A stretch of DNA of 63,331 bases, the filler included. It is 20 parts of 20 records of this genome, joined end to end, with 100 filler letters (N's around TTAATTAATTAA, not from the genome) between each part and the next. Parts side by side here need not be neighbours in the genome. Positions count along the whole stretch, not along the records: positions 21,636 to 23,641 come from SRR11831580_4739; 19 more parts are not named here. One strand, given 5' to 3'. The notes beneath the pieces are model-generated. The model was not told where the DNA came from and ran no database searches. It saw nothing but the letters and a program-made list of their open reading frames with translations. Within the stretch, counting starts at the first letter, position 1. Every line of letters begins with the position of its first letter. The position numbers and the translations under genes are program-made. This document shows, in pieces, positions 21,536 through 23,741 of this stretch.

Positions 21536-21635
21536 NNNNNNNNNNNNNNNNNNNNNNNNNNNNNNNNNNNNNNNNNNNNTTAATTAATTAANNNNNNNNN
21601 NNNNNNNNNNNNNNNNNNNNNNNNNNNNNNNNNNN

Positions 21636-22098
21636 CCCGGGAAAGGGGGCGCGCGTGACGACAAACGCACGAGCAGAGGATCCGAAGAGCAGTGCAGACA
21701 GACCTACACAGTGAGGGGTGCGCGCGTCCGTGAGAAAGAAGCGTCGTAACACATGAAAATCACTGAAAACAGCGAAGCAAGTGGGGAACTTGCACGAATA
21801 CAACCTGGAAAGAAATCGATAAACCACACTACCAAGATACAAAAACACGAAGCGCAACAGTGACAATACGAGATGATCGCGCGCGCTTACCGATGGCGGC
21901 AGGATAGCCCAATGGTAGCTGTGTTTCTCCGAGCTCATGATTCTTTCGTTCTCTTGCATCGATCGCCGCACCCGAAAGTGCATAGATAAGACCGGCACCA
22001 CCAGCTGCAAGGACTACAGGCAGCGATCGCGATTGGGCAAAATGCATTGCCCCTACAGCGCCAATGGCAGCTGCAGACAGATAGGTTCCTGTTGGCAT
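21636..22098 (-). CDS. Spliced TMEM14 (UPF0136)-like small membrane protein, 3' truncated. Exons 22098-21891 and 21703-21636; intron 21890-21704; an alternative in-frame ATG lies at 22128
   Basis: Spliced product MPTGTYLSAAAIGAVGAMHFAQSRSLPVVLAAGGAGLIYALSGAAIDARERKNHELGETQLPLGYPAAIG/LSALLFGSSARAFVVTRAPFPG; phase-1 GTAAGC..TGTGTAG intron; Gly/Ala-rich TM pattern resembles TMEM14. Confidence 0.65.
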
Positions 22099-22163
22099 CC
22101 TAACTTGATACTGCACTTGAATATACATCTTCACTTTCGTGTTGCCCTCTTTCTCTTGTCTCG

Positions 22164-22179
22164 GGTCAAAGATTTGACC
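22164..22179. promoter_or_regulatory. Palindrome in the divergent intergenic region (candidate shared regulatory element)
   Basis: GGTCAAA-GA-TTTGACC, perfect 7-bp arms, between the two start codons. Confidence 0.3.
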
Positions 22180-22278
22180 TAGCTACGGTATCGGAGACAG
22201 TCAATTTCGTTTGAGGAGATGTTTTCACATTTTGGTGCTGTTTTGCGGTATTGTCGAGTCTGTTTGTGGGACCTTTCC

Positions 22279-23641
22279 ATGGCGACTGCATTCTTCAACC
22301 CCGAAGCTTGGCTTCAAGCGTTTCGCGGCGCTTCCGCGAGCGGTGATCGTACAACAATGCGCCGAATCGTCCCAGTAGGCTAACTCCGCTACAGGTAGCA
22401 TGCTTAACAAACTCCGTATCGACATTCAACAGCAAACCATCCGCGTTTGCGAAGCTGGTGGATTCGAATTCACGTCCGGGAAGCAGGTGACCGTTCCTAA
22501 CCGCACTGCGGTCGCAGCTATGGTGAGTGTTGCTGCTGATTGCATTTAGTTTCATGCACTTACGTAGTGCTTGTTATTTCACATCAGGTTCGCCAGTCCG
22601 TGATGTACCAGAACAGTCACCCGTGGCAGGTTCGGCGCCAGGGGACGTACCCGAACTGCGTGTACTGCTGCAAAGGCGATTGTCTGGAAGCGGCAGAGTG
22701 GCAGCTCAGTCGCGTACGTGTGGGGTCGCTAGCTGCGTTCTTTGGGTGTGAGTGCATCAGAACTGTGCTTGAGAGAGAACATTGGCTCATGCACGATTGT
22801 CATGCGCTGTCAGTTCTGTGTGTTCATGTGGACTGTGTGGACTCTGCGGTATCGTGCTTTTAACCATAGGGTTCACTCATCTGCTATGATGCGTGTGTAT
22901 TGTGTAGTGTATCTATTGTGTGGTGTCCTTGCGAGTGTCGCGTATTGTCTGTTGCTGATTATTCAATGTATGCTGACCTCCTTTCATTTGGTTCTGTGTG
23001 CTAGGGACTCAACCCTGTTGTCCTCAACATGGCTAATGCGTGTACGTGCTGGTAATTTCCTCTCTGCGAAAGGGTGTGCGTTTGCTTGTCGCCTCGCACT
23101 GTCCTTCCTTACGTGTGAGTGCATTCTCTCTCAATGTGTGCGTGCGTCGGTTGGTTTATATCTACATATGTTGTGTAGTTATTCCTGGGGGCGGATGGAA
23201 GCACGGCAGCGGTGCACAAGAGGAAAACCTACATCGTCGCTCCAACTATTTTCAGTTTCTGGATGACCCGGGGCGGCTCTGGAACGACCGGCCGTGGAAA
23301 TACCCGATTCCGGAATTTGGTACGTTGTTGTGTGTGTAGCATGTGTGCGTTTCTCTTGGCATTGTGTACATTCTGTAAATGTGCTGCGTGTGTATGTGCG
23401 TGTATCTGTGGATCTTGGCAGCGTAATTGTATATATTGGGAAGTTTGTGTGAGATGGTGGTCCTGTGCCAATGGATTGAGTGTGGGTTTCGGTGACCCCT
23501 TCATGAGGGTATAGACTGTGAGAGACAGAGCGCGTTGCTATCATGGATAGTAGAGTGAGTTGTCAACACAACACTTCTAACATAGGTCCCACGAACCGTA
23601 TTGTTGTGTAGGCGGCATCTACAGCCCCAACGTGACGGTGT
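22279..23641 (+). CDS. Spliced bacterial-type poly(ADP-ribose) glycohydrolase (DUF2263/TIGR02452-like macrodomain), 3' truncated. Exons 22279-22348, 22395-22522, 22588-22713, 23005-23041, 23179-23319 and 23612-23641+
   Basis: Five GT..AG introns splice in frame with no stops over 177 codons, giving ...KGDCLEAAEWQLSRGLNPVVLNMANAFIPGGGWKHGSGAQEENLHRRSNY...YPIPEFGGIYSPNVTV, which contains the PARG GGG-X7-QEE motif. Confidence 0.88.
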
Positions 23642-23741
23642 NNNNNNNNNNNNNNNNNNNNNNNNNNNNNNNNNNNNNNNNNNNNTTAATTAATTAANNN
23701 NNNNNNNNNNNNNNNNNNNNNNNNNNNNNNNNNNNNNNNNN

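Follow-up and report, generated by a model that had tools for sequence, protein, structure and literature searches.

Positions 22279-23641 of the window, as we call the whole stretch of 63,331 nucleotides analysed here, very probably hold the 5′ part of a eukaryotic gene for a poly(ADP-ribose) glycohydrolase (PARG) of the microbial type (DUF2263/PF10021). Judged by its reading frame and its homologs, this predicted gene has spliceosomal introns and at least six exons, which together give 177 codons. It is a further, incomplete member of an already known family, and it is not a bacterial oddity. The contig that carries it is foreign DNA of a eukaryotic type, placed inside an assembly that is otherwise E. 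coli.

Results

A eukaryotic-type contig lies among E. coli contigs

The window (1-63331) consists of 20 separate contigs of 2.0-5.8 kb. They are joined by N44-TTAATTAATTAA-N44 spacers, which hold stop codons in all six frames and are found, for example, at 2164-2263, 21536-21635, and 23642-23741. Because the contigs were stitched together by these spacers, adjacency across a spacer is without meaning. Comparing the contigs with the enterobacterial genome G001, the nearest genome compared, we find that 19 of the 20 match it over their length with 91-100% identity. Two of these 19 bacterial contigs were also compared with 5,426 complete E. coli genomes. The contig at 1-2163 (galF/wcaM) and the contig at 23742-29500 (aegA/tkt/ypfG/nudK/narQ) are both 100% identical to K-12 strains (MG1655, C600, and ER1709), so that, going by these two, the bacterial share of the assembly resembles a laboratory strain. 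In the tkt/narQ contig, a stretch of about 40 nt at 25404-25462 matches dozens of G001 sites at 84-95% identity; it resembles an ordinary enterobacterial REP-type interspersed repeat.

The contig at 21636-23641 matched neither G001 nor any member of a comparison set of 5,426 complete E. coli genomes. This contig is a foreign, eukaryotic-type one in the E. coli assembly. It may have entered from a culture fed on lab E. coli, through a clone-library host, or by mis-binning.

The original prediction had spoken of a hidden gene that a six-frame ORF track would miss. Indeed, no six-frame ORF spans the gene, as each intron breaks the frame or adds a stop. Four of the five intron lengths are not multiples of three, and intron 3, whose length is a multiple of three, adds a stop at 22861-22863 on read-through. 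The word "hidden" applies to it solely on account of eukaryotic DNA, this contig, standing in an otherwise E. coli assembly.

Searching this contig against Rfam, we obtained no match at E ≤ 1; the search covers RNA genes in the introns as well as group II introns. The other ORFs of the region on both strands (the stop-to-stop ORFs of 177 aa and 127 aa, and three more) showed no Pfam family at a meaningful E value. Upstream of the PARG gene, the divergent ORF encodes hydrophobic stretches rich in glycine and scores weakly on Tmemb_14, below the threshold (19.4 bits against a cut-off of 24.8); it probably opens a second eukaryotic gene as its first exon. No homolog of this ORF was found among 101 candidates, and the best Atlas score (0.78) lay below the lead threshold. 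A possible GTAAGC donor after '..AAIG' was also noticed in this ORF.

Table 1. Features of the foreign contig and of the predicted PARG gene, in window coordinates
Feature	Coordinates	Strand	Remarks
PARG-bearing contig	21636..23641		2006 bp; spacers on both sides; has no E. coli/G001 match, unlike the 19 other contigs
Divergent upstream ORF	21829..22182	-	117 aa stop to stop; about 100-180 bp upstream of the PARG start
Exon 1	22279..22348	+	ATG at 22279; N-terminal W-x-x-x-F motif common to eukaryotic homologs
Intron 1	22349..22394	+	46 nt, GTACAA..ACAG; CTAAC 11 nt from 3′ end
Exon 2	22395..22522	+	N-terminal helical accessory element; aligns via the family profile with the T. curvata PARG chain at its start
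Intron 2	22523..22587	+	65 nt, GTGAGT..TCAG
Exon 3	22588..22713	+	Contains the GDCLEAA motif
Intron 3	22714..23004	+	291 nt, GTACGT..CTAG; CTGAC 28 nt from 3′ end
Exon 4	23005..23041	+	37 nt; VLNMANA motif
Intron 4	23042..23178	+	137 nt, GTACGT..GTAG; phase 1, in the Phe before IPGGG
Exon 5	23179..23319	+	Catalytic loop; passes Pfam PF10021 alone
PARG signature GGG-X7-QEE	23187..23225	+	GGG 23187-23195, QEE 23217-23225
Intron 5	23320..23611	+	292 nt, GTACGT..GTAG; phase 1, in the Gly of EF-G-GIY; CTAAC 31 nt from 3′ end
Exon 6	23612..23641	+	IYSPNVTV motif; cut after its first 30 nt, where the contig ends

Six exons form one open frame that is cut by the contig end

Rebuilding the model from the window coordinates, we recovered all five predicted introns as GT..AG introns, with the donors and acceptors given in Table 1. 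The spliced coding sequence is 532 nt long and is without stops or frameshifts. It gives the stop-free six-exon frame that had been proposed, with 177 codons from the ATG at 22279; stops occur in the two other frames. At 23642 the open frame meets the N spacer, and the gene is thus cut by the contig end as claimed. An in-frame ATG lies 20 codons further upstream (22219-22221), and the preceding stop is at 22180-22182. This ATG is a possible alternative start, and the start codon is accordingly ambiguous (22279 or 22219).

Exons and introns differ in composition. The exons have 57.3% GC (GC3 65.5%), and the introns have 46.9% GC with 35.5% T. CTRAC-like motifs (CTAAC/CTGAC) are found 11-31 nt from the 3′ end in three of the five introns (1, 3, and 5). 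We also considered an introner or repeat origin of the introns and rejected it: the repeat search gave only imperfect matches of 14-30 nt and no shared intron family.

Homology supports the splice junctions

We examined the junctions with a local HMM that was built from 24 full-length homologs, leaving out the spliced peptide itself. Against this HMM, the spliced 177-aa model scored 191.8 bits. Moving the GT or the AG of one intron each time, we obtained 114 stop-free alternatives, and 112 of them scored below this value. The two others were higher by 1.0-2.5 bits: 22529..22596 for intron 2 (194.3 bits) and 22720..23004 for intron 3 (192.8 bits). Both swap a consensus donor (GTGAGT and GTACGT, respectively) for a poorer one. 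For intron 4, all the alternatives were at least 19 bits lower.

The spliced peptide also aligns without breaks over the five junctions to all 35 relatives described below, extending up to residues 4-177 (blastp, E down to 5.5e-40). In the multiple alignment, junctions 3, 4, and 5 are free of indels, a single residue is added at junction 2, and the sequence around junction 1 is variable. With variable sequence and near-equal alternatives, the predicted boundaries of junctions 1 and 2 are uncertain. In summary, the open spliced frame, the colinear homolog alignment, and the lower scores of nearly all alternatives bear out the exon-intron model, and the predicted six-exon gene at 22279-23641 is far beyond chance.

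The gene belongs to the DUF2263 family and keeps its catalytic signature

Exon 5 alone (46 aa) matches positions 88-117 of the 146-position PF10021 profile. Its score of 34.2 bits (E 4.1e-8) exceeds the gathering cut-off of 23.5, which supports the DUF2263 assignment made in the original prediction. TIGR02452 was the only NCBIfam match of this exon, with 21 bits (E 1.9e-4) against a whole-protein cut-off of 50; a piece of 46 aa is not expected to attain such a threshold. Exons 2 and 3, searched singly, had no Pfam or NCBIfam match, and exon 1, read on in frame into its intron, matched no Pfam family.

The GGG..QEE catalytic signature that had been proposed is present as GGG-X7-QEE, and its columns are invariant in 22 of 22 homologs. 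Of the family columns within the range of the peptide, all 19 invariant ones and 7 of the 8 near-invariant ones are kept. The link to the solved structures runs through the relatives, with which the window peptide aligns colinearly: a profile of 22 of them matches chain residues 1-260 of the T. curvata PARG structure 3SIG (E 1.9e-40) and also the 5ZD entries, which are D. radiodurans PARG (E about 3e-35). When exon 5 alone was searched against the PDB, 3SIG was reached at E 0.69 only, as a single-exon query.

Relatives come from eukaryotes and metagenomes

A database search with exon 5 gave 52 candidates. Of these, 35 were relatives, and PF10021 is present in 33 of them. A eukaryotic source is named for fourteen (eight from bdelloid rotifers, one from Pelomyxa schiedti, and five from EukProt transcriptomes), and a bacterial source is named for none. 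The rotifer and Pelomyxa proteins are already annotated with the PF10021 domain. The spliced peptide is 36-47% identical to the relatives over about 150-190 aa. The best local identities are 62% over 81 aa with the Pelomyxa protein and 74% over 61 aa with a metagenome protein (P0001). No protein exceeded 76% identity in exon 5 in a search over 5.8 billion clusters.

We also built a quick tree of 29 rows, from which 7 fragments shorter than 200 aa had been dropped. In this weakly resolved tree, the window sequence is in no starred clade. It groups loosely with P0001 and a sequence from EukProt (SH-aLRT 80), apart from the rotifers and from Pelomyxa. Two viral contigs, L082 (334,687 bp) and L083 (104,698 bp), carry unspliced relatives of the microbial-type PARG that are 44% and 35% identical to the window peptide, respectively.

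Looking for contigs of the same organism, the scan of genome contigs gave only a distant Balneolales MAG, and the first metagenome scan gave nothing. A second metagenome scan, using an alignment headed by exon 5, yielded 349 relatives; we kept 80, and no close one was among them. Many of the kept metagenome relatives split into tblastn segments in different frames, divided by GT-AG introns near the same places. We solved junctions in these relatives by taking the best GT/GC..AG pair. Of 20 junctions on 18 loci, 16 were solved and 4 were without a solution. The 16 solved introns lie 1-10 codons from the window introns, none at the same site. They interrupt the first or the third Gly of GGG, or sit just after GGG-x, or fall in the Gly that precedes AGAQEE, or separate PE from FGG. 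In five loci (L010, L012, L013, L022, and L045), a long phase 1 intron of 345-1355 nt interrupts the first Gly of the catalytic GGG; other metagenome loci have short introns (49-62 nt) that lie close by, in different places. We conclude that intron-bearing eukaryotic genes for microbial-type PARG (mPARG) are common in metagenomes and that their intron positions vary greatly around the catalytic loop. Since the introns of the relatives never coincide with the window sites, their positions are no independent confirmation of the window junctions.

The C-terminal part lies beyond the contig end

IYSP.V is the last motif of the peptide. By profile alignment, it corresponds to a position near residue 149 in the T. 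curvata chain of 277 residues. The C-terminal ~45% of the catalytic macrodomain therefore lies past the contig end, with the ribose cap, the diphosphate-binding loop (GCG-x-F/Y), and, among the family columns, 6 invariant and 13 near-invariant ones. The original prediction of an intact eraser stands for the N-terminal ~55%, where all in-range invariant columns are kept, but it does not extend to the C-terminal ~45% that is off the contig. With that part off the contig, the gene could be defective downstream. Searching the rest of the window for C-terminal exons by tblastn, we obtained weak matches at 289-348 and 1285-1362 (E 0.013-0.8). They fall in the E. coli galF/wcaM contig, partly opposite the galF strand, and were rejected as chance matches.

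In the parts of PMC4030884 and PMC6445106 that deal with the mechanism, bacterial-type PARGs are described as a macrodomain with the signature loop, in which a QEE glutamate acts in catalysis via an oxocarbenium and ADP-ribose is released. Both QEE glutamates are present in the window peptide. By analogy with the family, the macrodomain would bind the terminal ADP-ribose of a PAR chain, and the GGG-X7-QEE loop would position the ribose-ribose O-glycosidic bond. With the second QEE glutamate acting as the acid, an oxocarbenium intermediate would then form. Water would attack next, and free ADP-ribose would be released. The position of the ribose cap decides between exo and endo cleavage, according to the relevant passages of PMC6445106. 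The mode of the window enzyme would depend on this C-terminal cap, which is off the contig. The gene is predicted to be transcribed and spliced in vivo, and its product may be enzymatically active.

Discussion

The gene is best understood beside the PARGs already known. The T. curvata enzyme (PDB 3SIG/3SIH/3SII, with 3SIJ as a mutant) is the founding bacterial-type PARG. The window peptide shares its domain order, in which an N-terminal helical element is followed by the macrodomain core, and also its xLNxAS, PGGG..G..AQEE, and IYSP.V motifs. Comparison of the 3SIJ mutant chain with 3SIG shows a change of the second QEE glutamate, a residue that is present in the window peptide. Unlike the T. 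curvata gene, the window gene is eukaryotic and has at least five introns, and its peptide has an extra N-terminal extension of ~25 residues that is common to eukaryotic homologs. The primary paper behind the reviews on microbial-type PARGs is reportedly Slade et al. 2011.

The D. radiodurans PARG (DrPARG; PDB 5ZDA-5ZDG) belongs to the same family, as the profile match above indicates. Its catalytic-loop Glu mutant E112A is inactive, as stated in the portion of PMC6445106 on mutants. The same source, where it treats the cleavage mode, links endo activity of DrPARG to the lack of a restraining N-terminal helix and to a Thr that replaces the ribose-cap Arg (PMC6445106). The C-terminal position equivalent to this Thr is off the window contig.

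Microbial-type PARGs of eukaryotes (bdelloid rotifers, Pelomyxa schiedti, EukProt protists, and filamentous fungi) resemble the window gene in carrying PF10021. Extracts of PMC4030884 and PMC13720257 place the microbial type in filamentous fungi and several lower eukaryotes, the latter being a review in which fungal mPARGs are noted. DUF2263 is treated as microbial PARG in the section of another review that touches on it (PMC7050489). Canonical eukaryotic PARGs (human and Tetrahymena) have GGG-X6-8-QEE and the same catalytic mechanism, as far as the pertinent text of PMC4030884 and PMC7050489 goes, and a large accessory domain and a tyrosine clasp are ascribed to them in part of PMC4030884. 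The signature is thus common to them and the window gene. In contrast to the canonical enzymes, the window gene matches the microbial-type model PF10021.

The observed sequence might also be no working gene but a eukaryotic mPARG copy that is silent, or a pseudogene in decay, given that only 177 codons are visible and that junction 2 adds one residue relative to the homologs. We consider this improbable, however. The 532 nt of spliced coding sequence contain no stop or frameshift, 19 of 19 in-range invariant columns are kept, the splice signals are intact in all five introns, and the exons differ in composition from the introns, with a GC3 of 65.5%. An origin of the contig from a giant or large eukaryotic virus with an intron-bearing mPARG gene is highly improbable. 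L082 (335 kb) and L083 (105 kb), both viral, do encode mPARG relatives, but their genes are unspliced and only 35-44% identical, and the nearest relatives of the window gene come from eukaryotic or metagenome sources. Five introns per 1.36 kb is also a density typical of cellular eukaryotic genes, and we counted it against the viral origin.

A further explanation would do away with the six-exon gene altogether, taking it for chance GT..AG pairs around one conserved bacterial-like motif or for the product of a chimeric or misassembled contig. That only exon 5 is individually significant in the curated libraries speaks for it. Yet exons 1-4 and 6 each lengthen the homolog alignment colinearly, moved junctions lower the HMM score in 112 of the 114 alternatives, and none of the remaining ORFs of the region, on both strands, is supported by a family match. 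On the strength of the homolog alignments and the HMM test of the junctions, this explanation seems hardly credible and can be regarded as effectively refuted. The reading that we prefer, with high confidence, is the 5′ part of a spliced eukaryotic mPARG gene.

The biological weight of the gene is small. Microbial-type PARGs of fungi, protists, and rotifers have already been described, and the window gene is one more, still incomplete. Its practical weight is larger, for a window that passes as bacterial contains foreign eukaryotic DNA. Annotations or statistics in which the whole window counts as E. coli would be misled by it. The contig also points to a eukaryote in the source material, together with K-12-like E. 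coli.

We also offer, tentatively, a broader reading that we think possible but rather unlikely. The contig may come from a eukaryote lineage that is not yet in the sequence databases, and the differing introns may reflect repeated, lineage-specific gain or sliding after an old transfer of mPARG from a bacterium to a eukaryote. The maximum of 76% identity in exon 5 and the genome and metagenome scans, which brought up nothing close, are compatible with such a new lineage. If this reading is true, introns would have been gained or would have slid around the catalytic loop of an eraser after that old bacterium-to-eukaryote transfer. A minor point for intron evolution is that eukaryotic mPARG genes in metagenomes carry many introns, whose positions differ near the catalytic loop.
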